Assembly (NCBI GenBank): GCA_026770705.1
Contig: JANJGN010000010.1
Coordinates: 40,176,001-40,240,000 of the forward strand
DNA: 64,000 bases
Source: Isurus oxyrinchus
Taxonomy: Eukaryota
Direction of reading: 5' to 3'
Below the pieces are notes generated by a model. That model was not told the DNA's origin, did not search any database, and saw only the letters and a list, made by a program, of their open reading frames with translations. The first letter of the stretch is position 1. Every line of letters begins with the position of its first letter. Below, one piece after another: positions 1 through 64,000 of the stretch. The position numbers were made by a program, and so were the translations under genes.

Positions 1-340
1 CTCCACCCAATTAGACAAGCCGAATTTTTACTCCTCAAGTCCAGTATTGATGATGTGACAGAAGGAAAACAGAAAAGTGAATGCTAACTTTGTCTAAATA
101 GACAAGTCCTGATCTGTTCCAAAGGATAGGGAATCTCCATTTGCACTAATGGGGCAGACATTCCGTTGCTCCAATACTGCATGAGTGATATCCACCTAGA
201 GCTCGGCCAAGAACGTTCCTGTGGCACCTGATCACTCAGAGCATGATAGAGGGAGCCAAGAAAGCGTCCAAACAACAAGATTGTTCTGTTCACCTTTGCT
301 TCTCATTTTGTTTAGTGTGTCAATCTTAAAAAAAACTGTT

Positions 341-381
341 GGCCTACATCATCACTGAGCTAGGCCTACATCATCAATGAG
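341..381 (+). repeat. Short direct repeat with 22-nt period inside each unit
   Basis: GGCCTACATCATCACTGAG at 341-359 and GGCCTACATCATCAATGAG at 363-381 (one mismatch); a degenerate third copy lies near 402-424. Confidence 0.85.
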
Positions 382-791
382 ATTTTGCTAACTGGACCAT
401 TCTCCTACATTCCACATCATCAATAAATTGTTTTTCTTTTTATTTGGTTAAATACTGCTTCCTCAGGGGAATCTTCCAAATACACAACCATTGGGATCTA
501 GATCAGGAGAAGCAGCAGGTACAGGGGCACACCAACACATGCAACTTCCTCTCTAAGACTTACAAAATCCGGACTTGGAAATATGTGTCAATCCGTCATG
601 GGCACTGGGTTGAAAACCAGAAACTGCCTCCCGATCAGCTCTGTGGATGTACCTAAACCACACGGATTGCAGCAATTCCAGAACCAGCATTAGCATCATA
701 CCAAGGACAATTAATGATGCTAATAAAAGTACGATCTGTCAAAATTACCCACATCCCATCGGCAAATAAATGAAAGCTTTGCGCAACTTAC

Positions 792-881
792 TATTTTCTT
801 CATTCTTTACACCGTCGGATCCCTGTTCTTCATTTTTACTGTTAGGATCACTTTTAGCATTTGTAGAGTTTCCCTGCAAAT
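792..881 (-). CDS. Repeat exon, 90 nt: xLQGNSTNAKSDPNSKNEEQGSDGVKNEEN
   Basis: Acceptor AG is CT at 882-883; donor GTAAGT is ACTTAC at 786-791; frame open. Confidence 0.72.
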
Positions 882-42800: not shown

Positions 42801-45800
42801 TACATGCCATTGTAAACTCATTGCATACAGGAGCTGAAACTACACTGGTAATGCAGTTCAATAATCATAAAAGAATACCTATGTATTTAGTTAAGCTTAA
42901 TGTGCCTTCATCTCAGGACAGATATTATTATTTCTCAGCTAAGTGCTGCATGAGGGGCCGTCAGAATAATGCAATTTTTCATCTCACAGTGAATAATGGT
43001 GCCTTGTAGGCTTCCCTCCTTTTCCAAAATATACATCAATCAATTTGCTTCAAATATTATTGGTAAAATTGTACAACATAGATTCGCATGCTAGCGACAT
43101 ATCTTTTTGGGTTCAAATCATTGTACCAAGAACGTACTTTAATGTAACGATACATCAATGAAGTTCTACGCTGTAAAATGGATCTATTTCTGAATTCTCT
43201 ATTTTGATCATTTTATCAAATATTATGACCAGTGTGAGAATTCAGCATTCCATCCAAAATGAGTTAGTTTTCAGACAAGATATCTGCTCAAGTCCTGGAC
43301 TGGAACATCAACACATATCCCCCTGACTGACAGAACAGGTTTCTGAATAATGGAGCTAATACTTCCTGGAATATGAGAAGGCACTTTGTGCTTTTGATTC
43401 TTTAGTGAAAAACAGTTCATATTTTCTCCATTGCAAAGAATACATCAGCCATTTCATTACAACTATAGCCTCCACCATCCATTGGAATCCCTTAGTATAT
43501 TTACTTTCTCAGTACTTCCACTAGCATGCCTTATTTCTGATGACTTCTCTACATCCCTTCTTTATTATGTGTTCTCTGTCCTTAACATAACATCAAGCCA
43601 AAGAAAGATATCTCAACTGGAGTATTTTCAATCCTTTCTGAGAAAGGAACCTCCACCCAATTAGACAAGCTGAATTTTTGCTCCTCAAGTCCAGTATTGA
43701 TGATGTGACAGAAGGAAAACAGAAAAGTGAATGCTAACTTTGTCTAAATAGACAAGTCCTGATCTGTTTCTAAGGATAGGGAATCTCCATTTGCACTAAT
43801 GGGGCAGACATTCCGTTTCTCCAATTCTGCATGAGTGATATCCACCTAGAGCTCGGCCAAGAACCTTCCTGTGGCACCTGATCACTCAGAGCATGATAGA
43901 GGGAGCCAAGAAAGCTTCCAAACAACAAGATTGTTCTGTTCACCTTTGCTTCTCATTTTGTTTAGTGTGTCAATCTTAAAAAAAACTGTTGGCCTGCATC
44001 ATCACTGAGCTAGGCCTACATCATCAATGAGATTACGCAAACTGCAGCATTCTCCTACATTCCACATCATCAATATATTGTATTTCTTTTTATTTGGTAA
44101 AATACTGCTTCGTCAGGGGAATCTTCCAAATGCACAACCATTGGGATGTAGATCAGGAGAAGCAGCAGGTAGAGGGGCACACCAACACATGCAACTTCCT
44201 CTCTAAGACTTACAAAATCCGGACTTGGAAATCGGTGTCAATCCTTCATGGGCACTGGGTTGAAAACCAGAAACTGCCTCCCGATCAGCTCTGTGGATGT
44301 ACCTACACCACACGGATTGCAGCAATTCCAGAACCAGCATTAGCATCATACCAAGGACAATTAATGATGCTAATAAATGTACGATCTGTCAAAATTACCC
44401 ACATCCCATCGGCAAATAAATGAAAGATTTGCGCAACTTACTATTTTCTTCATTCTTTTCACTGTCGGTTCCCTGTTCTTCATTTTTACCGTTAGGTTCA
44501 CTTTTAGCATTTGTAGAGTTTCCCTGCAAATCTACATGAACAAAAATATACATGCCATTGTAAACTCATTGCATACAGCCGCTGAAACTACACTGGTAAT
44601 GCAGTTCAATAATCATAAAAGAATACCTATGTATTTAGTTAAGCTTAATGTGCCTTCATCTCAGGACAGATATTATTATTTCTCAGCTAAGTGCTGCATG
44701 AGGGGCCGTCAGAATAATGCAATTTTTCATCTCACAGTGAATAATGGTGCCTTGTAGGCTTCCCTCCTTTTCCAAAATATACATCAATCAATTTGCTTCA
44801 AATATTATTGGTAAAATTGTACAACATAGATTCGCATGCTAGCGACATATCTTTTTGGGTTCAAATCATTGTACCAAGAACGTACTTTAATGTAACGATA
44901 CATCAATGAAGTTCTACGCTGTAAAATGGATCTATTTCTGAATTCTCTATTTTGATCATTTTATCAAATATTATGACCAGTGTGAGAATTCAGCATTCCA
45001 TCCAAAATGAGTTAGTTTTCAGACAAGATATCTGCTCAAGTCCTGGACTGGAACATCAACACATATCCCCCTGACTGACAGAACAGGTTTCTGAATAATG
45101 GAGCTAATACTTCCTGGAATATGAGAAGGCACTTTGTGCTTTTGATTCTTTAGTGAAAAACAGTTCATATTTTCTCCATTGCAAAGAATACATCAGCCAT
45201 TTCATTACAACTATAGCCTCCACCATCCATTGCAATCCCTTAGTATATTTACTTTCTCAGTACTTCCACTAGCATGCCTTATTTCTGATGACTTCTCTAC
45301 ATCCCTTCTTTATTATGTGTTCTCTGTCCTTAACATAACATCAAGCCAAAGAAAGATATCTCAACTGGAGTATTTTCAATCCTTTCTGAGAAAGGAACCT
45401 CCACCCAATTAGACAAGCTGAATTTGTGCTCCTCAAGTCCAGTATTGATGATGTGACAGAAGGAAAACAGAAAAGTGAATGCTAACTTTGTCTAAATAGA
45501 CAAGTCCTGATCTGTTTCTAAGGATAGGGAATCTCCATTTGCACTAATGGGGCAGACATTCCGTTGCTCCAATTCTGCATGAGTGATATCCACCTAGAGC
45601 TCGGCCAAGAACCTTCCTGTGGCACCTGATCACTCAGAGCATGATAGAGGGAGCCAAGAAAGCTTCCAAACAACAAGATTGTTCTGTTCACCTTTGCTTC
45701 TCATTTTGTTTAGTGTGTCAATCTTAAAAAAAACTGTTGGCCTGCATCATCACTGAGCTAGGCCTACATCATCAATGAGATTACGCAAACTGCAGCATTC

Positions 45801-48800
45801 TCCTACATTCCCCATCATCAATATATTGTATTTCTTTTTATTTGGTAAAATACTGCTTCGTCAGGGGAATCTTCCAAATGCACAACCATTGGGATGGAGA
45901 TCAGGAGAAGCAGCAGGTAGAGGGGCACACCAACACATGCAACTTCCTCTCTAAGACTTACAAAATCCGGACGTGGAAATATATGTCAATCCGTCATGGG
46001 CACTGAGTTGAAAACTGCCTCCCGATCAGCTCTGTGGATGTACCTACACCACACGGATTGCAGCAATTCCAGATCCAGCATTAGCATTATACCAAGGACA
46101 ATTAATGATGCTAATAAATGTACGATCTGTCAAAATTACCCACATCCCATCGGCAAATAAATGAAAGATTTGCGCAACTTACTATTTTCTTCATTCTTTT
46201 CACTGTCGGTTCCCTGTTCTTCATTTTTACTGTTAGGTTCACTTTTAGCATTTGTAGAGTTTCCCTGCAAATCTACATGAACAAAAATATACATGCCATT
46301 GTAAACTCATTGCATACAGGCGCTGAAACTACACTGGTAATGCAGTTCAATAATCATAAAAGAATACCTATGTATTTTGTTAAGCTTAATGTGCCTTCAT
46401 CTCAGGACAGATATTATTATTTCTCAGCTAAGTGCTGCATGAGGGGCCTTCAGAATAATGCAAAATTTCATCTCACAGTGAATAATAGTGCCTTGTAGGC
46501 TTCGCTCCTTTTCCTCAATATACATCAATCAATTAGCTTCAAATATTATTGGTAGAATTGTACAACATAGATTCGCATGCTAGCGACATATCTTTTTGGG
46601 TTCAAATCATTTTACCAAGAACGTACTTTAATGTAACGATACATCAATGAAGTTCTACGCTATAAAATGGATCTATTTCTGAATTCTCTATTTTGATCAT
46701 TTTATCAAATATTATGACCAGTGTGAGAATTCAGCATTCCATCCAAAATGAGTTAGTTTTCAGACAAGATATCTCCTCAAGTCCTGGACTGGAACATCAA
46801 CACATATCCCCCTGACTGACAGAACAGGTTTCTGAATAATGGAGCTAATACTTCCTGGAATATGAGAAGGCACTTTGTGCTTTTGATTCTTTAGTGAAAA
46901 ACAATTCATATTTTCTCCATTTCAAAGAATACATAAGCCATTTCATTACAACTATAGCCTCCACCATCCATTGCAATCCCTTAGTATATTTACTTTCTCA
47001 GTACTTCCACTAGCATGCCTTATTTCTGCTGACTTCTCTACATCCCTTCTTTATTATGTGTTCTCTGTACTTAACATAACATCAAGCAAAAGAAAGATAT
47101 CTCAACTGGAGTATTTTTAATCCTTTCTGAGAAAGGAACCTCCACCCAATTCGACAAGCTGTATTTTTGCTCCTCAAGTCCAGTATTGATGATGTGACAG
47201 AAGGAAAACAGAAAAGTGAATGCTAACTTTGTCTAAATAGACAAGTCCTGATCTGTTTCAAAGGATAGGGAATCTCCATTTGCACTAATGGGGCAGACAT
47301 TCCGTTGCTCCAATTCTGCATGAGTGATATCCACCTGGAGCTCGGCCAAGAACCTTCCTGTGGCACCTGATCACTCAGAGCATGATAGAGGGAGCCAAGA
47401 AAGCGTCCAAGCAACAAGATTGTTCTGTTCACCTTTGCTTCTCATTTTGTTTAGTGTGTCAATCTCAAAAAAACTGTTGGCCAACATCATCACTGAGCTC
47501 GGCCTACATCATCAATGAGATTTTGCAAACTGGAGCATTCTCCTACATTCCTCATCATCAATAAATTGTATTTCTATTTATTTGGTTAAATACTGCTTTG
47601 TCAGGGGAATCTTCCAAATACACAACCATTGGGATGTAGATCAGGATAAGCAGCAGGTAGAGGGGCACACCAACACATGCAACTTCCTCTCTAAGACTTA
47701 CAAAATCCGGACTTGGAAATATGTGTCAATCCTTCATGGGCACTGGGTTGAAAACCAGAAACTGCCTCCCGATTAGCTCTGTGGATGTACCTAGACCACA
47801 TGGATTGCAGCAATTCCAGAACCAGCATTAGCATCATACCATGGACAATTAATGATGCTAATAAATGTACGATCTGTCAAAATTACCCACATCCCATCAG
47901 CAAATAAGTGAAAGCTTTGCGCAACTTACTATTTTCTTCATTCTTTACACTGCCGGTTCCCTGTTCTTCATTTTTACTGTTAGGATCACTTTTAGCATTT
48001 GTAGAGTTCCCCTGCAAATCTACATGAACAAAAATATACATGCCATTGTAAACTCATTGCATACAGGTGCTGAAACTACACTGGTAATGCAGTTCAATAA
48101 TCATAAAAGAATACCTATGTATTTTGTTAAGCTTAATGTGCCTTCATCTCAGGACAGATATTATTATTTCTCAGCTAAGTGCTACATGAGGGGCCTTCAG
48201 AATAATGCAAAATTTCATCTCACAGTGAATAATAGTACCTTGTAGGCTTCCCTCCTTTTCCTCAATATACATCAATCAATTAGCTTCAAATATTATTGGT
48301 AGAATTGTACAACATATATTCGCATGCTAGCGACATATCTTTTTGGGTTCAAATCATTGTACCAAGAACGTACTTTAATGTAACGATACATCAATGAAGT
48401 TCTACGCTATAAAATGGATCTATTTCTGAATTCTCTATTTTGATCATTTTATCAAATATTATGACCAGTGTGAGAATTCAGCATTCCATCCAAAATGAGT
48501 TAGTTTTCAGACAAGATATCTCCTCAAGTCCTGGACTGGAACATCAACACATATCCCCCTGACTGACAGAACAGGTTTCTGAATAATGGAGCTAATACTT
48601 CCTGGAATATGAGAAGGCACTTTGTGCTTTTGATTCTTTAGTGAAAAACAATTCATATTTTCTCCATTTCAAAGAATACATAAGCCATTTCATTACAACT
48701 ATAGCCACCACCATCCATTGCAATCCCTTAGTACATTTACTTTCTCATTTCTTCCACTAGCATGCCTTATTTCTGCTGACTTCTTTACATCCCTTCTTTA

Positions 48801-51800
48801 TTATGTGTTCTCTGTCCTTAACATAACATCAAGCAAAAGAAAGATATCTCAACTGGAGTATTTTCAATCCTTTCTGAGAAAGGAACCTCCACCCAATTTG
48901 TCAAGCTGAATTTGTGCTCCTCAAGTCCAGTATTGATGATGTGACAGAAGGAAAACAGAAAAGTGAATGCTAACTTTGTCTAAAAAGACAAGTCCTGATC
49001 TGTTCCAAAGGATAGGGAATCTCCATTTGCACTAATGGGGCAGACATTCCGTTGCTCCAATTCTGCATGAGTGATATCCACCTAGAGCTCGGCCAAGAAC
49101 CTTCCTGTGGCACCTGATCACTCAGAGCATGATAGAGGGAGCCAAGAAAGCGTCCAAACAACAAGATTGTTCTGTTCACTTTTGCTTCTCATTCTGTTTA
49201 GTGTGTCAATCTTAAAAAAAACTGTTGGCCTACATCATCACTGAGCTAGGCCTACATCATCAATGAGATTTTGCTAACTGGAGCATTCTCCTACATTTCA
49301 CATCATCAATAAATTTTATTTCTTTTTATTTGGTTAAATACTGCTTCATCAGGGGAATCGTCCAAATGCACAACCATTGGGATGTAGATCAGGAGAAGCA
49401 GCAGGTAGAGGGGCACACCAACACATGCAACTTCCTCTCGAAGACTTACAAAATCCAGACTTGGAAATAGCTGTCAATCCTTCATGGGCACTGGGTTGAA
49501 AGCCAGAAACTGCCTCCCGATCAGCTCTGTGGATGTACCTACACCACACGGATTGCAGCAATTCCAGACCCAGCATTAGCATCATACCAAGGACAATTAA
49601 TGATGCTAATAAATGTACGATCTGTCAAAATTACCCACATCCCATCGGCAAATAAATGAAAGCTTTGCGCAACTTACTATTATCTTCATTCTTTTCACTG
49701 TCGGTTCCCTGTTCTTCATTTTCACTGTTAGGATCACTTTTAGCATTTGTAGAGTTTCCCTGCAAATCTACATGAACAAAAATATACATGCCATTGTAAA
49801 CTCATTGCATACAGGCGCTGAAACTACACTGGTAATGCAGTTCAATAATCATAAAAGAATACCTATGTATTTAGTTAAGCTTAATGTGCCTTCATCTCAG
49901 GACAGATATTATTATTTCTCAGCTAAGTGCTGCATGAGGGGCCTTCAGAATAATGCAAAATTTCATCTCGCAGTGAATAATACTGCGTTGTAGGCTTCCC
50001 TCCCTTTCCTCAATATACATCAATCAATTTGCTTCAAATATTATTGGTAAAATTGTACAACGTAGATTCACATGCCAGTGACATATCTTTTTGGGTTCAA
50101 ATCATTCTACCAAGAACGTACTTTAATGTAACGATACATCAATGAAGTTCTACGCTGAAAAATGGATCTATTTCTGAATTCTCTATTTTGATCATTTTAT
50201 CAAATATTATGACCAGTGTGAGAATTCAGCATTCCATCCAAAATGAGTTAGTTTTCAGACAAGATATCTCCTCAAGTCCTGGACTGGAACATCAACACAT
50301 ATCCCCCTGACTGACAGAACAGGTTTCTGAATAATGGAGCTAATACTTCCTGGAATATGAGAAGGCACTTTGTGCTTTTGATTCTTTAGTGAAAAACAAT
50401 TCATATTTTCTCCATTTCAAAGAATACATAAGCCATTTCATTACAACTATAGCCTCCACCATCCATTGCAATCCCTTAGTATATTTACTTTCTCAGTACT
50501 TCCACTAGCATGCCTTATTTCTGCTGACTTCTCTACATCCCTTCATTATTATGTGTTCTCTGTCCTTAACATAACATCAAGCAAAAGAAAGATATCTCAA
50601 CTGGCGTATTTTTAATCCTTTCTGAGAAAGGAACCTCCACCCAATTAGACAAGCTGAATTTTTGCTCCTCAAGTCCAGTATTGATGATGTGACAGAAGGA
50701 AAACAGAAAAGTGAATGCTAACTTTGTCTAAATAGACAAGTCCTGATCTGTTTCAAAGGAATCGGGAATCTCCATTTGCACTAATGGGGCAGACATTTCG
50801 TTGCTCCAATTCTGCATGAGTGATATCCACCTAGAGCTCGGCCAAGAAACTTCCTGTGGCACCTGATCACTCAGAGCATGATAGAGGGAGCCAAGAAAGC
50901 GTCCAAGCAACAAGATTGTTCTGTTCACCTTTGCTTCTCATTTTGTTTAGTGTGTCAATCTCAAAAAAAACTGTTGGCCAACATCATCACTGAGCTAGGC
51001 CTACATCATCAATGAGATTTTGCTAACTGGAGCATTCTCCTACATTCTCCATCATCAATAAATTGTATTTCTATTTATTTGGTTAAATACTGCTTCGTCA
51101 GTATTCGTCAGGGGAATCTTCCAAATACACAACCATTGGGATGTAGATCAGGAGAAGCAGCAGGTAGAGGGGCACACCAACACATGCAACTTCCTCTCTA
51201 AGACTTACAAAATCCGGACTTGGAAATATTTGTCAATCCTTCATGGGCACTGGGTTGAAAACCAGAAACTGCCTCCCGATCAGCTCTGTGGAGGTACCTA
51301 GACCACACGGATTGCAGCAATTCCAGAACCAGCATTAGCATCATACCAAGGACAATTAATGATGCTAATAAATGTACGATCTGTCAAAACTACCCACATC
51401 CGATCAGCAAATAAATGAAAGCTTTGCGCAACTTACTATTTTCTTCATTCTTTTCACTGTCGGTTCCCTGTTCTTCATTTTTACTGTTAGGATCACTTTT
51501 AGCATTTGTGGAGTTTCCCTGCAAATCTACATGAACAAAAATATACATGCCATTGTAAACTCATTGCATACAGGCGCTGAAACTACACTGGTAATGCAGT
51601 TCAATAATCATAAAAGAATACCTATGTATTTAGTTAAGCTTAATGTGCCTTCATCTCAGGACAGATATTATTATTTCTCAGCTAAGTGCTGCATGAGGAG
51701 CCTTCAGAATAATGCAAAATTTCATCTCGCAGTGAATAATAGTGCGTTGTAGGCTTCCCACCCTTTCCTCAATATACATCAATCAATTTGCTTCAAATAT

Positions 51801-54800
51801 TATTGGTAAAATTGTACAACGTAGATTCACATGCCAGTGACATATCTTTTTGGGTTCAAATCATTGTACCAAGAACGTACTTTAATGTAACGATACATCA
51901 ATGAAGTTCTACGCTGAGAAATGGATCTATTTCTGAATTCTCTATTTTGATCATTTTATCAAATATTATGACCAGTGTGAGAATTCAGCATTCCATCCAA
52001 AATGAGTTAGTTTTCAGACAAGATATCTCCTCAAGTCCTGGACTGGAACATCAACACATATCCCCCTGACTGACAGAACAGGTTTCTGAATAATGGAGCT
52101 AATACTTCCTGGAATATGAGAAGGCACTTTGTGCTTTTGATTCTTTAGTGAAAAACAATTCATATTTTCTCCATTTCAAGGAATACATCAGCCATTTCAT
52201 TACAACTATAGCCTCCACCATCCATTGCAATCCCTTAGTATATTTACTTTCACAGTACTTCCACTAGCATGCCTTATTTCTGATGACTTCTCTACATCCC
52301 TTCTTTATTATGTGTTCTCTGTCCTTAACATTACATCAAGCAAAAGAAAGATATCTCAACTGGAGTATTTTCAATCCTTTCTGAGAAAGGAAACTCCACC
52401 CAATTAGACAAGCTGAATTTTTGCTCCTCAAGTCCAGTATTGATAATGTGACAGAAGGAAAACAGAAAAGTGAATGCTAACTTTGTCTAAATAGACAAGT
52501 CCTGATCTGTTTCAAAGGATAGGGAATCTCCATTTGCACTAATGGGGCAGACGTTCCGTTGCTCCAATTCTGCATGAGTGATATCCACCTGGAGCTCGGC
52601 CAAGAACCTTCCTGTGGCACCTGATCACTCAGAGCATGATAGAGGGAGCCAAGAAAGCGTCCAAACAACAAGATTGTTCTGTTCACCTTTGCTTCTCATT
52701 TTGTTTAGTGTGTCAATCTCAAAAAAAACTGTTGGCCAACATCATCACTGAGCTAGGCCTACATCATCAATGAGATTTTGCTAACTGGAGCATTCTCCTA
52801 CATTCCCCATCATCAATAAATTGTATTTCTATTTATTTGGTTAAATACTGCTTCGTCAGGGGAATCTTCCAAATACACAACCATTGGGATGGAGATCAGG
52901 AGAAGCAGCAGGTAGAGGGGCACACCAACACATGCAACTTCCTCTCTAAGACTTACAAAATCCGGACTTGGAAATATGTGTCAATCCGTCATGGGCACTG
53001 GGTTGAAAACCAGAAACTGCCTCCCGATCAGCTCTGTGGATGTACCTAGACCACACGGATTGCAGCAATTCCAGAACCAGCATTAGCATCATACCAAGGA
53101 CAATTAATGATGCTAATAAATGTACGATCTGTCAAAATTATCCACATCCCATCGGCAAATGAATGAAAGCTTTGCGCAACTTACTATTTTCTTCATTCTT
53201 TACACCGTCGGTTCCCTGTTCTTCATTTTTACTGTTAGGATCACTTTTAGCATTTGTAGAGTTTCCCTGCAAATCTACATGAACAAAAATATACATGCCA
53301 TTGTAAACTCATTGCATACAGGCGCTGAAAATACATTGGTAATGCAGTTCAATAATCATAAAAGAATACCTATGTATTTAGTTAAGCTTAATGTGCCTTC
53401 TTCTCAGGACAGATATTATTATTTCTCAGCTAAGTGCTGCATGAGGGTCCTTCAGAATAATGCAAAATTTCATCTCGCAGTGAATAATAGTGCCTTGTAG
53501 GCTTCCCTCCTTTTCCTCAATATACATCAATCAATTAGCTTCAAATATTATTAGTAAAATTGTACAACATAGAATCACATGCGAGCGACATATCTTTTTG
53601 GGTTCAATCATTGTACCAAGAACGTACTTCAATGTAACGATACATCAATGAAGTTCTACGCTATAAAATGGATCTATTTCTGAATTCTCTATTTTGATCA
53701 TTTTATGAAATATTATGACCAGTGTGAGAATTCAGCATTCCATCCAAAATGAGTTAGTTTTCAGACAAGATATCTCCTCAAGTCCTGGACTGGAACATCA
53801 ACACATATCCCCCTGACTGACAGAACAGGTTTCTGAATAATGGAGCTAATACTTCCTGGAATATGAGAAGGCACTTTGTGCTTTTGATTCTTTAGTGAAA
53901 AACAATTCATATTTTCTCCATTTCAAAGAATACATCAGCCATTTCATTACAACTATAGCCACCACCATCCATTGCAATCCCTTAGTATATTTACCAACTC
54001 AGTACTTCCACTAACATGCCTTATTTCTGCTGACTTCTCTACATCCCTTCTTTATTATGTGTTCTCTGTCCTTAACATAACATCAAGCAAAAGAAAGATA
54101 TCTCAACTGGAGTATTTTCAATCCTTTCTGAGAAAGGAACCTCCACCCAATTAGGCAAGCTGAATTTTTGCTCCACAAGTCCAGTATTGATAATGTGACA
54201 GAAGGAAAACAGAAAAGTGAATGCTAACTTTGTCTAAATAGACAAGTCCTGATCTGTTCCAAAGGATAGGGAATCTCCATTTGCACTAATGGGGCAGACA
54301 TTCCGTTGCTCCAATTCTGCATGAGTGATATCCACCTAGAGCTCGGCCAAGAACCTTCCTGTGGCACCTGATCACTCAGAGCATGATAGAGGGAGCCAAG
54401 AAAGCGTCCAAACAACAAGATTGTTCTGTTCACCTTTGCTTCTCATTCTGTTTAGTGTGTCAATCTTAAAAAAAACTGTTGGCCTACATCATCACTGAGC
54501 TAGGCCAACATCATCAATGAGATTTTGCTAACTGGAGCATTCTCCTACATTCCACATCATCAATAAATTTCATTTCTTTTTACTTGGTTAAATACTGCTT
54601 CATCAGGGGAATCGTCCAAATACACAACCATTGGGATCTAGATCAGGAGAAGCAGCAGGTAGAGGGGCACACAAACACATGCAACTTCCTCTCTAAGACT
54701 TACAAAATCCGGACTTGGAAATATGTGTCAATCCTTCATGGGCACTGGGTTGAAAACCAGAAACTGCCTCCCGATCAGTTCTGTGGATGTACCTACACCA

Positions 54801-57800
54801 CACGGATTGCAGCAATTCCAGAACCAGCATTAGCATCATACCAAGGACAATTAATGATGCTAATAAATGTACGATCTGTCAAAATTACCCACATCCCATC
54901 GGCAAATAAATGAAAGCTTTGCGCAACTTACCATTTTCTTCATTGTTTACACCGTCCATTCCCTGTTCACGGTTTGCTGGTTTGTCATTATGAACCTCCA
55001 CCATTTCAGTCGTAGGTTCACTTTTATCATTTGAAGAGTTTCCCTTCGAAACTACATGAACAAAAATATACATGCCATTGTAAACTCATTGCATACTGGA
55101 TCTGAAACTAAACTGATAATGCATTTGAATAATCATAAAAGAATACCTGTGCTTTTAGTAAAGCTTAATTTTCCTTCACCTCAGGACAGATATTATTATT
55201 TCTCAGCTAAGTGCTGCATGAGGGACCTTCAGAATAATGCAAAATTTCATCTCACAGTGAATAATAGTTCCTTGTATGCTTCCCTCCCTTTCCTCAATAT
55301 ACATCAATCAATTAGCTTCAAGTATTATTGGTAAAATTGTACAACGTAGTTTCACATGCGGCCCAGGAACCTACTAGCAACATATCTTTTTGGGGTTAAA
55401 TCATTGTACAAAGAATGTACTTCAATGTAACGATACATCAGTGAAGTTCTATGCTGAAAAATGGATCTATTCCTGAATTCTACATTTTGATCATGCTATC
55501 AAATATTATGACAAATGTGTGAATTCATCATTTCATCCAAAATGAGTTAGGTTTCAGACAAGATATCAGCTCAAGTCCTGGACTGGAACATCAACATATT
55601 TCCCACAGACTGACAGACCAGGTTTCTGAATAATGGAGTTATTACTTCGATGAATATGACAAGGCATTTTGTGCTTTTGATGCTTCAGTGAAAAACAATT
55701 CATATTTTCTCCATTTCAAAGAGTACATAAGCCATTTCGTTACAACTATTGCCTCCACCATCCATTGCAATCCCTTAGTATATTTACTTTCTCAGTACTT
55801 CCACTAGCATGCCTTATTTCTGCTGACTTCTCTACATCCCTTCTTTATTATGTGTTCTCTGTCCTTAACATAACATCAAGCAAAAAATGATATCTCAACT
55901 GGATTATTTTTAATCCTTTCTGAGAAAGGAACCTCCACCCAATTAGACAAGCTGAATTTTTGCTCCTCAAGTCCAGTATTGATGATGTGACAGAAGGAAA
56001 ACAAAAAAGTGAATGCTAACTTTGTCTAAATAGACATGTCCTGATCTGTTTCAAGGGATAGGGAATCTCCATTTGCACTAATGGGGCAGACATTCCGTTG
56101 CTCCAATTCTGCATGAGTGATATCCACCTGGAGTTCGGCCAAGAACCTTCCTGTGGCAACTGATCACTCAGAGCATGATAGAGGGAGCCAAGAAAGCGTC
56201 CAAACAACAAGATTGTTCTGTTCACCTTTGCTTCTCATTTTGTTTAGTGTGTCAATCTCAAAAAAAACTGTTGGCCTACATCATCACTGAGCTAGGCCTA
56301 CATCATCAATGAGATTTTGCTAACTGGAGCATTCTCCTACATTCTCCATCATCAATAAATTGTATTTCTATTTATTTGGTTAAATACTGCTTCGTCAGTA
56401 TTCGTCAGGGGAATCTTCCAAATACACAACCATTGGGATCTAGATCAGGAGAAGCAGCAGGTAGAGGGGCACACCAACACATGCAACTTCCTCTCGAAGA
56501 CTTACAAAATCCGGACTTGGAAATATTTGTCAATCCTTCATGGGCACTGGGTTGAAAACCAGAAACTGCCTCCCGATCAGCTCTGTGGATGTACCTAGAC
56601 CACACGGATTGCAGCAATTCCAGAACCAGCATTAGCATCATACCAAGGACAATTAATGATGCTAATAAATGTACGATCTGTCAAAATTACCCACATCCCA
56701 TCGGCAAATAAATGAAAGATTTGCGCAACTTACTATTTTCTTCATTCTTTTCACTGTCGGTTCCCTGTTCTTCATTTTTACCGTTAGGTTCACTTTTAGC
56801 ATTTGTAGAGTTTCCCTGCAAATCTACATGAACAAAAATATACATGCCATTGTAAACTCATTGCATACAGCCGCTGAAACTACACTGGTAATGCAGTTCA
56901 ATAATCATAAAAGAATACCTATGTATTTAGTTAAGCTTAATGTTCCTTCATCTCAGGACAGATATTATTATTTCTCAGCTACGTGCTGCATGAGGGGCCT
57001 TCAGAATAATGCAAAATTTCATCTCGCAGTGAATAATAGTGCCTTGTAGGCTTCCCTCACTTTCCTCAATATACATCAATCAATTAGCTTCAAATATTAT
57101 TGGTAAAATTGTACAACGTAGATTCACATGCTAGTGACATATCTTTTTGGGTTTAAATCATTGTACCAAGAACATATTTTAATGTAACGATACATCAATG
57201 AAGTTCTACGCTGAAAAATGGATCTATTTCTGAATTCTCTAATTTGATCATTTTATCAAATATTATGACCAGTGTGAGAATTCAGCATTCCATCCAAAAT
57301 GAGTTAGTTTTCAGACAAGATATCTGCTCAAGTCCTGGACTGGAACATCAACACATATCCCCCTGACTGACAGAACAGGTTTCTGAATAATGGAGCTAAT
57401 ACTTCCTGGAATATGAGAAGGCACTTTGTGCTTTTAATTCTTTAGTGAAAAACAGTTCATATTTTCTCCATTGCAAAGAATACATCAGCCATTTCATTAC
57501 AACTATAGCCTCCACCATCCATTGGAATCCCTTAGTATATTTACTTTCTCAGTACTTCCACTAGCATGCCTTATTTCTGATGACTTCTCTACATCCCTTC
57601 TTTATTATGTGTTCTCTGTCCTTAACATAACATCAAGCCAAAGAAAGATATCTCAACTGGAGTATTTTCAATCCTTTCTGAGAAAGGAACCTCCACCCAA
57701 TTAGACAAGCTGAATTTTTGCTCCTCAAGTCCAGTATTGATGATGTGACAGAAGGAAAACAGAAAAGTGAATGCTAACTTTGTCTAAATAGACAAGTCCT

Positions 57801-60800
57801 GATCTGTTTCTAAGGATAGGGAATCTCCATTTGCACTAATGGGGCAGACATTCCGTTTCTCCAATTCTGCATGAGTGATATCCACCTAGAGCTCGGCCAA
57901 GAACCTTCCTGTGGCACCTGATCACTCAGAGCATGATAGAGGGAGCCAAGAAAGCTTCCAAACAACAAGATTGTTCTGTTCACCTTTGCTTCTCATTTTG
58001 TTTAGTGTGTCAATCTTAAAAAAAACTGTTGGCCTGCATCATCACTGAGCTAGGCCTACATCATCAATGAGATTACGCAAACTGCAGCATTCTCCTACAT
58101 TCCCCATCATCAATATATTGTATTTCTTTTTATTTGGTAAAATACTGCTTCGTCAGGGGAATCTTCCAAATGCACAACCATTGGGATGGAGATCAGGAGA
58201 AGCAGCAGGTAGAGGGGCACACCAACACATGCAACTTCCTCTCTAAGACTTACAAAATCCGGACGTGGAAATATATGTCAATCCGTCATGGGCACTGAGT
58301 TGAAAACTGCCTCCCGATCAGCTCTGTGGATGTACCTACACCACACGGATTGCAGCAATTCCAGATCCAGCATTAGCATTATACCAAGGACAATTAATGA
58401 TGCTAATAAATGTACGATCTGTCAAAATTACCCACATCCCATCGGCAAATAAATGAAAGATTTGCGCAACTTACTATTTTCTTCATTCTTTTCACTGTCG
58501 GTTCCCTGTTCTTCATTTTTACTGTTAGGTTCACTTTTAGCATTTGTAGAGTTTCCCTGCAAATCTACATGAACAAAAATATACATGCCATTGTAAACTC
58601 ATTGCATACAGGCGCTGAAACTACACTGGTAATGCAGTTCAATAATCATAAAAGAATACCTATGTATTTTGTTAAGCTTAATGTGCCTTCATCTCAGGAC
58701 AGATATTATTATTTCTCAGCTAAGTGCTGCATGAGGGGCCTTCAGAATAATGCAAAATTTCATCTCACAGTGAATAATAGTGCCTTGTAGGCTTCGCTCC
58801 TTTTCCTCAATATACATCAATCAATTAGCTTCAAATATTATTGGTAGAATTGTACAACATAGATTCGCATGCTAGCGACATATCTTTTTGGGTTCAAATC
58901 ATTGTACCAAGAACGTACTTTAATGTAACGATACATCAATGAAGTTCTACGCTATAAAATGGATCTATTTCTGAATTCTCTATTTTGATCATTTTATCAA
59001 ATATTATGACCAGTGTGAGAATTCAGCATTCCATCCAAAATGAGTTAGTTTTCAGACAAGATATCTCCTCAAGTCCTGGACTGGAACATCAACACATATC
59101 CCCCTGACTGACAGAACAGGTTTCTGAATAATGGAGCTAATACTTCCTGGAATATGAGAAGGCACTTTGTGCTTTTGATTCTTTAGTGAAAAACAATTCA
59201 TATTTTCTCCATTTCAAAGAATACATAAGCCATTTCATTACAACTATAGCCTCCACCATCCATTGCAATCCCTTAGTATATTTACTTTCTCAGTACTTCC
59301 ACTAGCATGCCTTATTTCTGCTGACTTCTCTACATCCCTTCTTTATTATGTGTTCTCTGTACTTAACATAACATCAAGCAAAAGAAAGATATCTCAACTG
59401 GAGTATTTTTAATCCTTTCTGAGAAAGGAACCTCCACCCAATTCGACAAGCTGTATTTTTGCTCCTCAAGTCCAGTATTGATGATGTGACAGAAGGAAAA
59501 CAGAAAAGTGAATGCTAACTTTGTCTAAATAGACAAGTCCTGATCTGTTTCAAAGGATAGGGAATCTCCATTTGCACTAATGGGGCAGACATTCCGTTGC
59601 TCCAATTCTGCATGAGTGATATCCACCTGGAGCTCGGCCAAGAACCTTCCTGTGGCACCTGATCACTCAGAGCATGATAGAGGGAGCCAAGAAAGCGTCC
59701 AAGCAACAAGATTGTTCTGTTCACCTTTGCTTCTCATTTTGTTTAGTGTGTCAATCTCAAAAAAACTGTTGGCCAACATCATCACTGAGCTCGGCCTACA
59801 TCATCAATGAGATTTTGCAAACTGGAGCATTCTCCTACATTCCTCATCATCAATAAATTGTATTTCTATTTATTTGGTTAAATACTGCTTTGTCAGGGGA
59901 ATCTTCCAAATACACAACCATTGGGATGTAGATCAGGATAAGCAGCAGGTAGAGGGGCACACCAACACATGCAACTTCCTCTCTAAGACTTACAAAATCC
60001 GGACTTGGAAATATTTGTCAATCCTTCATGGGCACTGGGTTGAAAACCAGAAACTGCCTCCCGATCAGCTCTGTGGATGTACCTAGACCACACGGATTGC
60101 AGCAATTCCAGAACCATCATTAGCATCATACCAAGGACAATTAATGATGCTAATAAATGTACGATCTGTCAAAATTACCCACATCCCATCGGCAAATAAA
60201 TGAAAGATTTGCGCAACTTACTATTTTCTTCATTCTTTTCACTGTCGGTTCCCTGTTCTTCATTTTTACCGTTAGGTTCACTTTTAGCATTTGTAGAGTT
60301 TCCCTGCAAATCTACATGAACAAAAATATACATGCCATTGTAAACTCATTGCATACAGCCGCTGAAACTACACTGGTAATGCAGTTCAATAATCATAAAA
60401 GAATACCTATGTATTTAGTTAAGCTTAATGTTCCTTCATCTCAGGACAGATATTATTATTTCTCAGCTACGTGCTGCATGAGGGGCCTTCAGAATAATGC
60501 AAAATTTCATCTCGCAGTGAATAATAGTGCCTTGTAGGCTTCCCTCACTTTCCTCAATATACATCAATCAATTAGCTTCAAATATTATTGGTAAAATTGT
60601 ACAACGTAGATTCACATGCTAGTGACATATCTTTTTGGGTTTAAATCATTGTACCAAGAACATATTTTAATGTAACGATACATCAATGAAGTTCTACGCT
60701 GAAAAATGGATCTATTTCTGAATTCTCTAATTTGATCATTTTATCAAATATTATGACCAGTGTGAGAATTCAGCATTCCATCCAAAATGAGTTAGTTTTC

Positions 60801-63799
60801 AGACAAGATATCTGCTCAAGTCCTGGACTGGAACATCAACACATATCCCCCTGACTGACAGAACAGGTTTCTGAATAATGGAGCTAATACTTCCTGGAAT
60901 ATGAGAAGGCACTTTGTGCTTTTAATTCTTTAGTGAAAAACAGTTCATATTTTCTCCATTGCAAAGAATACATCAGCCATTTCATTACAACTATAGCCTC
61001 CACCATCCATTGGAATCCCTTAGTATATTTACTTTCTCAGTACTTCCACTAGCATGCCTTATTTCTGATGACTTCTCTACATCCCTTCTTTATTATGTGT
61101 TCTCTGTCCTTAACATAACATCAAGCCAAAGAAAGATATCTCAACTGGAGTATTTTCAATCCTTTCTGAGAAAGGAACCTCCACCCAATTAGACAAGCTG
61201 AATTTTTGCTCCTCAAGTCCAGTATTGATGATGTGACAGAAGGAAAACAGAAAAGTGAATGCTAACTTTGTCTAAATAGACAAGTCCTGATCTGTTTCTA
61301 AGGATAGGGAATCTCCATTTGCACTAATGGGGCAGACATTCCGTTTCTCCAATTCTGCATGAGTGATATCCACCTAGAGCTCGGCCAAGAACCTTCCTGT
61401 GGCACCTGATCACTCAGAGCATGATAGAGGGAGCCAAGAAAGCTTCCAAACAACAAGATTGTTCTGTTCACCTTTGCTTCTCATTTTGTTTAGTGTGTCA
61501 ATCTTAAAAAAAACTGTTGGCCTGCATCATCACTGAGCTAGGCCTACATCATCAATGAGATTACGCAAACTGCAGCATTCTCCTACATTCCCCATCATCA
61601 ATATATTGTATTTCTTTTTATTTGGTAAAATACTGCTTCGTCAGGGGAATCTTCCAAATGCACAACCATTGGGATGGAGATCAGGAGAAGCAGCAGGTAG
61701 AGGGGCACACCAACACATGCAACTTCCTCTCTAAGACTTACAAAATCCGGACGTGGAAATATATGTCAATCCGTCATGGGCACTGAGTTGAAAACTGCCT
61801 CCCGATCAGCTCTGTGGATGTACCTACACCACACGGATTGCAGCAATTCCAGATCCAGCATTAGCATTATACCAAGGACAATTAATGATGCTAATAAATG
61901 TACGATCTGTCAAAATTACCCACATCCCATCGGCAAATAAATGAAAGATTTGCGCAACTTACTATTTTCTTCATTCTTTTCACTGTCGGTTCCCTGTTCT
62001 TCATTTTTACTGTTAGGTTCACTTTTAGCATTTGTAGAGTTTCCCTGCAAATCTACATGAACAAAAATATACATGCCATTGTAAACTCATTGCATACAGG
62101 CGCTGAAACTACACTGGTAATGCAGTTCAATAATCATAAAAGAATACCTATGTATTTTGTTAAGCTTAATGTGCCTTCATCTCAGGACAGATATTATTAT
62201 TTCTCAGCTAAGTGCTGCATGAGGGGCCTTCAGAATAATGCAAAATTTCATCTCACAGTGAATAATAGTGCCTTGTAGGCTTCGCTCCTTTTCCTCAATA
62301 TACATCAATCAATTAGCTTCAAATATTATTGGTAGAATTGTACAACATAGATTCGCATGCTAGCGACATATCTTTTTGGGTTCAAATCATTGTACCAAGA
62401 ACGTACTTTAATGTAACGATACATCAATGAAGTTCTACGCTATAAAATGGATCTATTTCTGAATTCTCTATTTTGATCATTTTATCAAATATTATGACCA
62501 GTGTGAGAATTCAGCATTCCATCCAAAATGAGTTAGTTTTCAGACAAGATATCTCCTCAAGTCCTGGACTGGAACATCAACACATATCCCCCTGACTGAC
62601 AGAACAGGTTTCTGAATAATGGAGCTAATACTTCCTGGAATATGAGAAGGCACTTTGTGCTTTTGATTCTTTAGTGAAAAACAATTCATATTTTCTCCAT
62701 TTCAAAGAATACATAAGCCATTTCATTACAACTATAGCCTCCACCATCCATTGCAATCCCTTAGTATATTTACTTTCTCAGTACTTCCACTAGCATGCCT
62801 TATTTCTGCTGACTTCTCTACATCCCTTCTTTATTATGTGTTCTCTGTACTTAACATAACATCAAGCAAAAGAAAGATATCTCAACTGGAGTATTTTTAA
62901 TCCTTTCTGAGAAAGGAACCTCCACCCAATTCGACAAGCTGTATTTTTGCTCCTCAAGTCCAGTATTGATGATGTGACAGAAGGAAAACAGAAAAGTGAA
63001 TGCTAACTTTGTCTAAATAGACAAGTCCTGATCTGTTTCAAAGGATAGGGAATCTCCATTTGCACTAATGGGGCAGACATTCCGTTGCTCCAATTCTGCA
63101 TGAGTGATATCCACCTGGAGCTCGGCCAAGAACCTTCCTGTGGCACCTGATCACTCAGAGCATGATAGAGGGAGCCAAGAAAGCGTCCAAGCAACAAGAT
63201 TGTTCTGTTCACCTTTGCTTCTCATTTTGTTTAGTGTGTCAATCTCAAAAAAACTGTTGGCCAACATCATCACTGAGCTCGGCCTACATCATCAATGAGA
63301 TTTTGCAAACTGGAGCATTCTCCTACATTCCTCATCATCAATAAATTGTATTTCTATTTATTTGGTTAAATACTGCTTTGTCAGGGGAATCTTCCAAATA
63401 CACAACCATTGGGATGTAGATCAGGATAAGCAGCAGGTAGAGGGGCACACCAACACATGCAACTTCCTCTCTAAGACTTACAAAATCCGGACTTGGAAAT
63501 ATGTGTCAATCCTTCATGGGCACTGGGTTGAAAACCAGAAACTGCCTCCCGATTAGCTCTGTGGATGTACCTAGACCACACGGATTGCAGCAATTCCAGA
63601 ACCAGCATTAGCATCATACCATGGACAATTAATGATGCTAATAAATGTACGATCTGTCAAAATTACCCACATCCCATCAGCAAATAAGTGAAAGCTTTGC
63701 GCAACTTACTATTTTCTTCATTCTTTACACTGCCGGTTCCCTGTTCTTCATTTTTACTGTTAGGATCACTTTTAGCATTTGTAGAGTTCCCCTGCAAAT
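792..63799 (-). CDS. Putative spliced, partial gene: 37 tandem phase-1 exons separated by ~1.66-kb introns, encoding a 30-aa Asn/Glu/Ser-rich repeat; start and stop lie outside the window
   Basis: Each unit reads TTTTTGTTCATGTAG | 90 nt | GTAAGT on the minus strand. Exon length is a multiple of 3, no copy has a stop or frameshift, GAAGAA enhancer-like motifs are present, and the divergent copy gains exactly 30 nt in frame. Confidence 0.75.
882..2538 (-). other. Representative GT-AG intron (1,657 nt), forming the rest of the repeat unit
   Basis: Starts GTAAGTTGCG and ends TTGTTCATGTAG on the minus strand; all frame-breaking indels seen in the array fall in this part of the unit. Confidence 0.7.
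2539..2628 (-). CDS. Repeat exon (AKCDP variant)
   Basis: AG/GTAAGT intact, 90 nt, open. Confidence 0.7.
4287..4376 (-). CDS. Repeat exon (QGSDGVRNEEN)
   Basis: AG/GTAAGT intact, 90 nt, open. Confidence 0.7.
6035..6124 (-). CDS. Repeat exon (QGSDGVRNEEN)
   Basis: AG/GTAAGT intact, 90 nt, open. Confidence 0.7.
7777..7866 (-). CDS. Repeat exon (QGTDGVNNEEN)
   Basis: AG/GTAAGT intact, 90 nt, open. Confidence 0.7.
9525..9614 (-). CDS. Repeat exon (QGSDGVRNEEN)
   Basis: AG/GTAAGT intact, 90 nt, open. Confidence 0.7.
11273..11362 (-). CDS. Repeat exon (QGSDGVKNEEN)
   Basis: AG/GTAAGT intact, 90 nt, open. Confidence 0.7.
13014..13103 (-). CDS. Repeat exon (QGTGGVNNEEN)
   Basis: AG/GTAAGT intact, 90 nt, open. 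Confidence 0.7.
14762..14851 (-). CDS. Repeat exon (QGSDGVKNEEN)
   Basis: AG/GTAAGT intact, 90 nt, open. Confidence 0.7.
16504..16593 (-). CDS. Repeat exon (QGTDGVNNEEN)
   Basis: AG/GTAAGT intact, 90 nt, open. Confidence 0.7.
18252..18341 (-). CDS. Repeat exon (QGTDGVNNEEN)
   Basis: AG/GTAAGT intact, 90 nt, open. Confidence 0.7.
20000..20089 (-). CDS. Repeat exon (QGTDGVNNEEN)
   Basis: AG/GTAAGT intact, 90 nt, open. Confidence 0.7.
21748..21837 (-). CDS. Repeat exon (QGSDGVKNEEN)
   Basis: AG/GTAAGT intact, 90 nt, open. Confidence 0.7.
23496..23585 (-). CDS. Repeat exon (QGSDGVKNEEN)
   Basis: AG/GTAAGT intact, 90 nt, open. Confidence 0.7.
25239..25328 (-). pseudogene. Repeat exon with inactivated donor (GTAAGT>ATAAGT), probable pseudo-exon
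   Basis: Plus strand reads CAACTTATTA instead of CAACTTACTA (C>T at 25238); the frame itself is still open. Confidence 0.6.
26987..27076 (-). CDS. Repeat exon (KYEEQGTDSVKNAEN)
   Basis: AG/GTAAGT intact, 90 nt, open. Confidence 0.7.
28735..28824 (-). CDS. Repeat exon (QGSDGVKNEEN)
   Basis: AG/GTAAGT intact, 90 nt, open. Confidence 0.7.
30478..30567 (-). pseudogene. Repeat exon with inactivated donor (GTAAGT>ATAAGT), higher-order-repeat copy of 25239-25328
   Basis: C>T at 30477 on the plus strand. Confidence 0.6.
32226..32315 (-). CDS. Repeat exon (KYEEQGTDSVKNAEN)
   Basis: AG/GTAAGT intact, 90 nt, open. Confidence 0.7.
33969..34058 (-). CDS. Repeat exon (LEGNST...QGTDGVKNEEN)
   Basis: AG/GTAAGT intact, 90 nt, open. 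Confidence 0.7.
35716..35805 (-). CDS. Repeat exon (LEGNST...QGTDGLKNEEN)
   Basis: AG/GTAAGT intact, 90 nt, open; the same substitution creates a stop in the overlapping plus-strand ORF. Confidence 0.7.
37463..37552 (-). CDS. Repeat exon (LEGNST...QGTDGVKNEEN)
   Basis: AG/GTAAGT intact, 90 nt, open. Confidence 0.7.
39209..39298 (-). CDS. Repeat exon (QGTGGVKNEEN)
   Basis: AG/GTAAGT intact, 90 nt, open. Confidence 0.7.
40949..41038 (-). CDS. Repeat exon (SEPNGKNEEQGTDSEKNEEN)
   Basis: AG/GTAAGT intact, 90 nt, open. Confidence 0.7.
42694..42783 (-). CDS. Repeat exon (QGTNSEKNEEN)
   Basis: AG/GTAAGT intact, 90 nt, open. Confidence 0.7.
44442..44531 (-). CDS. Repeat exon (SEPNGKNEEQGTDSEKNEEN)
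   Basis: AG/GTAAGT intact, 90 nt, open. Confidence 0.7.
46183..46272 (-). CDS. Repeat exon (SEPNSKNEEQGTDSEKNEEN)
   Basis: AG/GTAAGT intact, 90 nt, open. Confidence 0.7.
47930..48019 (-). CDS. Repeat exon (QGTGSVKNEEN)
   Basis: AG/GTAAGT intact, 90 nt, open. Confidence 0.7.
49678..49767 (-). CDS. Repeat exon (NSENEEQGTDSEKNEDN)
   Basis: AG/GTAAGT intact, 90 nt, open. Confidence 0.7.
51437..51526 (-). CDS. Repeat exon (QGTDSEKNEEN)
   Basis: AG/GTAAGT intact, 90 nt, open. Confidence 0.7.
53185..53274 (-). CDS. Repeat exon (QGTDGVKNEEN)
   Basis: AG/GTAAGT intact, 90 nt, open. Confidence 0.7.
54932..55051 (-). CDS. Divergent 120-nt repeat exon: xSKGNSSNDKSEPTTEMVEVHNDKPANREQGMDGVNNEEN
   Basis: Acceptor TTTTTGTTCATGTAG and donor ATG|GTAAGT intact; phase 1-1; net +10 codons; contained within ORF-track entry 54885..55073(-). 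Confidence 0.75.
56734..56823 (-). CDS. Repeat exon (SEPNGKNEEQGTDSEKNEEN)
   Basis: AG/GTAAGT intact, 90 nt, open. Confidence 0.7.
58475..58564 (-). CDS. Repeat exon (SEPNSKNEEQGTDSEKNEEN)
   Basis: AG/GTAAGT intact, 90 nt, open. Confidence 0.7.
60222..60311 (-). CDS. Repeat exon (SEPNGKNEEQGTDSEKNEEN)
   Basis: AG/GTAAGT intact, 90 nt, open. Confidence 0.7.
61963..62052 (-). CDS. Repeat exon (SEPNSKNEEQGTDSEKNEEN)
   Basis: AG/GTAAGT intact, 90 nt, open. Confidence 0.7.
63710..63799 (-). CDS. Repeat exon (QGTGSVKNEEN)
   Basis: AG/GTAAGT intact, 90 nt, open. Confidence 0.7.
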
Positions 63800-64000
63800 C
63801 TACATGAACAAAAATATACATGCCATTGTAAACTCATTGCATACAGGTGCTGAAACTACACTGGTAATGCAGTTCAATAATCATAAAAGAATACCTATGT
63901 ATTTTGTTAAGCTTAATGTGCCTTCATCTCAGGACAGATATTATTATTTCTCAGCTAAGTGCTACATGAGGGGCCTTCAGAATAATGCAAAATTTCATCT

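Follow-up and report, generated by a model that had tools for sequence, protein, structure and literature searches.

A 120-nt repeat exon, one of eight long forms in a 67-exon array behind the transmembrane exon of a probable B7-H6-like gene of Isurus oxyrinchus

Array, host gene and anatomy of the unit with the 120-nt exon

The window analysed here is a stretch of 64,000 nt from Isurus oxyrinchus (G000:C10:40176001-40240000), and the whole of it is one tandem array with a unit of about 1,748 bp (37 anchors, 36 full units). The larger exon-plus-intron array to which it belongs (Table 1) has 59 exons of 90 nt and eight of 120 nt in the region fetched around the window, and is flanked by two far older units with exons of 120 nt (40267711-40267830) and 117 nt (40142122-40142238). 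Tandem Repeats Finder does not detect the array because its period limit was 500.

Table 1. Position of the features described in the text; positions without prefix are those of the window.
Feature	Position	Strand	Basis or remark
Leader, V, C1, transmembrane and 93-nt exons	G000:C10:40300.7-40276.4 kb	-	upstream of array
Exon-plus-intron tandem array, ~122 kb	G000:C10:40142.9-40264.5 kb; window 1..64000 is its middle	-	67 exons
Symmetric phase-1 exon, 120 nt, probably older class	54932..55051	-	reading frame and splice sites; class spliced in RNA-like contigs
5' splice donor GTAAGT	54926..54931	-	splice-site check; joint 55050 -> 54932 in run X1
Polypyrimidine tract and TAG acceptor	55052..55071	-	almost no variation between units
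30-nt segment, absent from 90-nt exons	54968..54997	-	alignment; placement may slide by up to 9 nt
Putative older-haplotype intron tract, upstream of 120-nt exon	55052..55750	-	9.2% vs 90-type consensus; 99.7-99.9% vs four siblings
15-nt segment	55359..55373	.	in 7/65 units, including paralog unit and one 3'-edge 90-nt unit
Adjoining downstream exon, 90-nt class	53185..53274	-	90-to-90 joint, 0 mismatches, run X4
Adjoining upstream exon, 90-nt class	56734..56823	-	unit anchors and exon annotation
Duplicated block, ~6.5 units, carries 120-nt unit	45000..56000	.	offset 15,780 bp, 16 mismatches/11,000 bases
Start of partner block, which runs beyond window end	60780..64000	.	contains sibling exon G000:C10:40246712-40246831

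The leader, V, C1, transmembrane and 93-nt exons that precede the array are all in phase 1. The leader exon at 40300735 is intact, being identical to that of Cetorhinus at 16/16 positions and having an intact donor, the V and C1 exons match the Pfam V-set (E 9.9e-8) and C1-set (E 1.5e-12) models and both pass the cut-off, and the transmembrane exon (40279505-609), which has a hydropathy peak of 2.7, aligns together with the 93-nt exon with Mustelus and Scyliorhinus proteins. Neither side of the array shows an evident second transmembrane exon. The V domain is 92% identical to a Cetorhinus protein named “NCR3LG1-like” (P0001) and 72-78% to Mustelus and Scyliorhinus proteins, and the best PDB match of P0001 is human B7-H6 (E 4.9e-29), followed by CD276 (1.7e-15) and TAPBPR (1.2e-13). 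Taken as single exons of the gene itself, V slightly favours CD276 over B7-H6 and C1 favours IgM domains; a genome-wide C1-set search does not have the locus among the matches listed (150 of 973 candidates), and its domains were found locally. The host is likely a B7-H6/NCR3LG1-like gene with V and C1 domains and a type I layout. CD44 variable exons, a TGN46-like protein and an extracellular mucin stalk were also considered and dropped, as the array lies behind the transmembrane exon.

Among the 36 full units of the window, which measure 1,740-1,759 bp, the unit starting at 54912 is the sole outlier in length (1,802 bp); it departs from the majority by 99 substitutions and the remaining 35 by 16-50, so that the description of an approximately 800-bp tract as the most diverged of the window in the initial annotation holds. 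The same applies to its account of the exon 54932-55051, which is 30 nt longer than the usual 90 nt, is stop-free, keeps its splice sites (...TTCATGTAG acceptor and GTAAGT donor) and the 1-1 phase, and to the extra 15 nt in the intron, which are present and start at 55359. The exon encodes 39 whole codons, rich in Asn, Glu, Ser and Gly, and is a cytoplasmic-tail repeat of the B7-H6-like gene; the base that precedes the donor is G in the 120-nt class and A in the 90-nt class.

The divergence of this unit is concentrated, with 72 of its 83 diagnostic sites inside 54932-55750. In an alignment of 65 full-length units (64 of the 67 array units and one paralog unit, with three short or interrupted units excluded), it differs from the 90-type consensus at 18/90 sites in the exon, 63/684 in the intron tract and 19/953 (2.0%) in the remainder, which is in the range of 90-type units (mean 1.8%, maximum 3.1%). 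The remainder had been called ordinary, which is correct for its divergence and passes over a 10-nt insertion at 56391 that is common to four other units.

Age and spread of the 120-nt class

An exon search that took in the 4.98-Gb genome finds four siblings of the window exon with 98-99% identity, at G000:C10:40246712, 40252009, 40257306 and 40260844, and further, more diverged 120-nt exons beyond these. The four siblings lie 16-30 kb from the window copy on the 5' side of the array, the nearest being 6.7 kb beyond the window edge. All 47 exon matches are on the contig of the window among the matches listed (40 of 69 candidates), and a search with the intron tract recovers the same four siblings at 99% among the matches listed (40 of 67 candidates). 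Over the tract, the window copy differs from them at 2-4 of 819 sites (0.2-0.5%), and it has three private bases across the whole unit. The unit had been presented as a single one, which is true inside the window only, and its apparent singleness is a window-edge effect: exons of 120 nt are found at the 5' edge of the array, in three adjoining (90, 90, 120) triplets, once at the 3' edge, and in the window.

A tandem paralog of the gene, located 170 kb away (G000:C10:40036-40083 kb) with flanks that are 96-98% identical, has repeat exons of 120 and 117 nt only. These exons and those of the most diverged unit types (40267711; 40142122 and 40052217) all have 120 or 117 nt and contain the 30-nt segment, and the 15-nt intron segment is also present in the unit of the paralog. 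Since the oldest unit types carry the 30-nt segment and the unit of the paralog the 15-nt segment, we infer that the two apparent insertions are deletions in the majority type, the 15-nt segment being presumably ancestral and then lost from most units. Of the 51 distinct exon-plus-flank sequences, 23 were used for a tree (254 columns, gap columns removed, built on recombining DNA and with non-homologous upstream sequence in three rows), which places all 11 sampled 90-nt exons in one clade with bootstrap 98, nested among long exons. The 120-nt form is thus likely ancestral and the 90-nt form derived, in agreement with the initial suggestion of an older exon. The split between long and short exons amounts to about 9% in the intron and the gene duplication to 2-4% in the unique flanks; as the former is older, the paralog may have lost its short units rather than never had them.

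The oldest units (40267711-40267830, 40142122-40142238 and 40052217-40052333) lack a GT donor at the usual end and have an in-frame GTAAGC at +81 or +78. The corresponding place in the 30-nt segment, exon position 82, has GTAAGC in two oldest units, a weak GT in the 120-nt exons (window 54969-54970) and none in the 90-nt exons. The internal GTAAGC may be the trace of a donor that moved from 81 to 120 nt. In Mustelus, the protein continues through the residues that match this site, and the shift could have gone in either direction. The paralog looks decayed (L016-L020), with CT for GT at the leader donor and a first repeat exon truncated by a deletion. Downstream of the array, both paralogs have a degenerate CA/CT simple-repeat tract of 3-4 kb (G000:C10:40135-40139.5 kb and 40046-40049.7 kb).

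The window copy is part of a block whose partner begins before the window end (Table 1). The five units downstream of unit 54912 differ from their partner units at 0-3 sites each, and the upstream intron of the window copy changes over to other array alleles, which resembles a crossover junction. Beyond the window, a 5,297-bp period has 3 mismatches in 9,500 bases, and the (90, 90, 120) triplet of this length is present three times in the array. The near-identity of blocks and siblings indicates that the window copy probably came recently within a block. The initial annotation regarded the tract as a probable relic that escaped homogenisation; its age stands, as the 120-nt form is likely the older one, while the copy itself is a recently duplicated member of a class amplified from the 5' edge.

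These observations suggest the following course of events. As each unit consists of one symmetric phase-1 exon and its intron, unequal crossover would add or remove units and leave the frame intact. A single 30-nt in-frame deletion would have created the 90-nt form, which, judging from the tree, would then have spread along the array, and the apparently older 120-nt units survive at both array edges; edges of arrays tend to stay more diverged. The innermost 5'-edge unit would have been copied as the three-unit block of 5,297 bp, and a later duplication at the 15,780-bp offset would have set one copy in the window; the near-identity of these blocks is observed and their order is the most plausible one. 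The tract of about 820 bp would be the remainder of an old unit between two crossovers with 90-type sequence. Read in this way, the unit is a textbook outcome of unequal crossover and a case of ordinary array turnover, with the host gene as the more unusual element. It also marks the order of events, from the 120-nt form through one deletion and the expansion of the 90-nt form to the recent duplication of blocks, and provides an exon-specific tag for the array. We hold with good confidence that the exon is one of eight long forms in a 67-exon array behind a B7-H6-like transmembrane exon, likely ancestral and probably brought from the 5' edge into the interior when a block was recently duplicated.

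Two other origins of the window copy have to be weighed. The 11-kb block and the 5.3-kb triplication could be false duplications of the assembly, from two haplotypes or an over-expanded repeat, in which case the 120-nt class would be real near the 5' edge only. Differences between blocks as small as 0.15% and 0.03% agree with this, and such values are compatible with allelic difference or read error; the private bases of the window copy and the allele switch of its upstream intron, as at a crossover junction, nevertheless argue against it, as do the other multi-unit periods found elsewhere in the array, though all of these are still compatible with an allelic origin. An assembly artefact is quite improbable. 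The initial annotation also proposed a conversion tract derived from a paralog, and the tandem paralog, which is only 170 kb distant, has only long exons and carries the 15-nt segment, would be the candidate donor. The tract differs from the paralog unit at 64/807 sites (7.9%), though the unique flanks of the two genes differ by only 2-4%, so it is closer to the siblings in its own gene than to the paralog, which is the reverse of what a tract donated by that gene would show. As no closer donor appears on another contig among the matches listed (40 of 69 and 40 of 67 candidates), donation by the paralog is hardly credible, and recent block duplication within the array is retained as the origin of the window copy.

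Other duplications occur in the array. At 23476-32206 of the window, a three-unit block is repeated at about 5.24 kb (23476, 25219 and 26967 against 28715, 30458 and 32206), and this is another recent multi-unit duplication. Two adjoining units, L008 and L009, have an insertion of about 2.9 kb (G000:C10:40151961-40154873 and 40156633-40159545) at an identical intron position, so the insertion was duplicated together with its unit.

Splicing and constraint of the repeat exons

Contigs assembled from sequencing runs were compared with the array. Among the holders listed, none is on record as RNA; runs X1-X4 were guessed to be RNA and judged RNA-like by their exon-only cover, with X1, X3 and X4 coming from two samples of two organisms. 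Out of 30 bins in window 53100-56900, X1 covers seven, X4 six and X3 eight, with X5 covering 25; the cover of X1, X3 and X4 consists of exon bins and one transcribed repeat fragment. The joint 53274 -> 53185 connects two 90-nt exons, with one 120-nt contig free of mismatches in X4, the joint 55050 -> 53185 connects a 90-nt and a 120-nt exon, and the joint 55050 -> 54932 two 120-nt exons. At the 5' edge of the array, the joint L003 963 -> 2636 is found, and an X2 contig matches a sibling exon over 106 nt with 0 mismatches. All contig joints of X1, X3 and X4 coincide with predicted splice sites and bear the first base of the siblings, not the private first base of the window copy; they show splicing between the long and the short class as such, rather than for the window copy itself. 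Among the matches listed for organism A, none has a 120-nt exon that ends in G joined exactly to a 90-nt exon, and the contigs collapse repeats, so that the number of exons per transcript lies outside what they resolve. In X5, from the second organism, ungapped contigs match the 90-nt exon with 10 differences in 180 and the 120-nt exon with 25 in 210; both classes therefore predate the split of the two organisms.

The transcribed repeat fragment is abundant, occurs in every intron (window ~54751-54823 and equivalents) and has very high contig cover. The donor GT is replaced by AT in two 90-nt exons (window 25239-25328 and 30478-30567); splicing probably skips these exons, or reading continues past the donor and meets a stop 16 codons further. 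At the final repeat exon of the array, the AG is gone. In all units, read-through of the donor (window ~54880-54931) gives a conserved 16-codon extension followed by a stop. This extension, which contains a Tyr-x-x-Met word, could be an alternative C-terminus; RNA support for it was not seen in the contigs.

The array can be regarded as coding, as initially proposed, since none of 73 exon copies has a stop and the exons are joined at predicted sites in RNA-like contigs. The 120-nt exon had been considered the strongest internal support for coding constraint, and this does not hold. For that exon alone, the probability of avoiding a stop over 18 substitutions is 0.36 under the intron mutation spectrum, which with the 1/3 chance of an in-frame indel gives about 0.12, and against the 90-nt consensus pN (0.19-0.20) is above pS (0.12-0.15), on few sites. 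The dN/dS comparison, which had been proposed as a check, was dropped as a proof of constraint. Stronger support comes from the spliced contigs and from acceptor conservation: the acceptor region 55052-55071 has one variant in 20 sites against 7.5 expected (Poisson P 0.005, 65 units). The donor, with three variants in six sites, shows no drop below background. The P of finding no stop is 0.02 among the 12 long exons; among the 59 short exons it is 0.11. One indel, of 30 nt, is found in the exon against 28 in the introns, of which five are multiples of 3; the 15-nt indel of the intron is likewise a multiple of 3. Across the exon copies, no amino-acid constraint was detected, the split of nonsynonymous and synonymous variants fitting neutrality (25:10, P 0.19; 50:17, P 0.29). 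What selection likely preserves is the reading frame and the splice sites rather than the residues.

A different force would be at work if the tail sequence were under diversifying selection, in response for instance to a pathogen or a partner protein, and if this maintained both exon classes in place of edge position and chance duplication. The exons do vary more than expected, with 35 distinct variants against 19 at intron rates (Poisson P 0.0006; four at CpG), in unit 54912 the exon outpaces the intron tract (18/90 vs 63/684, Fisher P 0.005), and a second species has both classes. Synonymous exon variants also exceed expectation (10 observed, 3.4 expected), so the faster exons do not demonstrate selection, and the neutral split given above and the pairwise comparisons among 120-nt exons, in which pN is mostly under pS, speak against it as well. 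The variant counts treat copies as independent despite their shared ancestry and mosaic history, and five near-identical copies from one chimeric unit are one count. Diversifying selection is for these reasons unlikely. Somewhat less unlikely, and still improbable, is that the array amounts to a largely neutral satellite within the gene, whose exons are dragged along and spliced through copied sites into transcripts that are mostly short or untranslated. The undetected residue-level constraint, the two dead donors and the dead last acceptor, the decayed look of the adjacent paralog and, weakly, the lack of a database match for the repeat peptide would fit such a satellite, which would have to be reconciled with 73 exons that contain neither stop nor frameshift, a conserved acceptor, intact leader, V, C1 and transmembrane exons, and head-to-tail splicing in two organisms. 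The reading kept here is a coding array under probable selection for splicing and frame.

The predicted tail, known coding repeats and other sharks

Since the array follows the transmembrane exon, its repeats are on the cytoplasmic side, and the product would be a type I membrane protein whose V and C1 domains face outward and whose cytoplasmic tail is long, acidic, of low complexity and probably disordered. If all 67 exons were joined, the predicted tail would have about 2,090 residues, with 21% Asn, 15% Glu, 12% Ser and 0.1% Tyr, and its length would follow copy number. Listing the ORFs in the 3' flanks of both genes revealed no terminal exon, and a search with the Mustelus C-terminus gave no support for one (705 of 3,000 shuffles reach the score). 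Neither repeat peptide matches a Pfam family, and the repeat peptide has five candidates in protein databases, none at E 1 or better, which is weak evidence.

With 67 head-to-tail phase 1-1 exons of 90 or 120 nt, which are spliced to each other in the guessed-RNA runs, the array has the features of a coding VNTR. Such a VNTR is kringle IV type 2 of LPA, which has a 5.6-kb two-exon unit in 1-40 copies and encodes a folded secreted domain; in its minority subtype KIV-2B the exon is similar to the one in the flanking KIV-3, and the subtype has about 100 intronic differences and synonymous changes, according to the available text of the source (PMC11201333). KIV-2B resembles the shark case as an edge-type unit within the core of an exon-plus-intron repeat inside a gene. 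The shark array differs in its 1.75-kb one-exon unit, 67 copies and low-complexity, cytoplasmic product, and its subtype in 10 residues of length and about 14 amino-acid changes. NBPF Olduvai repeats have coding units of about 1.6 kb in three-unit higher-order repeats, as described in the available part of PMC9584774, and this three-unit order is like that of the 5,297-bp triplet, while sequence and gene family are unrelated and the three copies of the shark triplet are a small part of the array. In the literature searched, mostly without subscription journals, no description of this exon array was found.

Human B7-H6 (NCR3LG1) is a ligand of NKp30 and a type I membrane protein with a distal IgV and a proximal IgC domain (PMC2715080, PMC6514059, available text), and its 454 residues include a Gag-like tail with ITIM, SH2- and SH3-binding motifs (PMC2715080, available text). 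The shark gene shares the V and C1 layout, and the basking-shark ortholog has human B7-H6 as its best PDB match, but a human-type Gag-like tail is absent from the shark repeats, with their 0.1% Tyr and no Pfam match; this tail is a human trait, not necessarily one of the family. Shark B7-H6 tails are not mentioned in the available portions of PMC10751288 and PMC13262535.

Gene models of Mustelus asterias (LOC144499271) and Scyliorhinus torazame (P0002-P0004) have the same V, C1, transmembrane and juxtamembrane exons, with 72-78% identity in V, but their tails consist of repeated Ig-like domains of about 140 residues, for which the array gene has no exon; the nearest such exons lie beyond other paralogs, some 175 kb downstream of the array. 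A Mustelus tail domain falls with C1-set clusters at 0.88-0.90 in an atlas search, which is a lead. Between the Ig-like domains, the Mustelus tail has short Asn/Ser/Glu linkers, and the oldest array exon matches them with scores that 7 and 2 of 3,000 shuffles reach, while exon 54932-55051 matches a linker no better than shuffles (606 of 3,000). The descent of the array exon from a linker exon is thus a supported lead and not a result.

B7-H6 tails vary widely, being Gag-like in human and chains of Ig-like domains in other sharks. Only as a tentative and rather doubtful proposal might a lamniform B7-H6 lineage have swapped the cytoplasmic Ig chain for a disordered acidic tail of about 2,100 residues, in which one linker exon was amplified about 67-fold, two exon classes were kept across species, exons evolve faster than introns, copy number varies and the product is an NK-cell ligand. 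If true, a 120-kb exon array behind a transmembrane exon would be a third solution for the B7-H6 tail and a testable example of an immune ligand with a coding VNTR in its cytoplasmic part.

The region G000:C10:39755-39968 kb (L037-L059) contains more V/C1 genes and about a dozen Ig-like exons of approximately 140 residues that match the Mustelus tail domain, several of which lie within a repeat of about 13.8 kb whose alternate copies are frameshifted.
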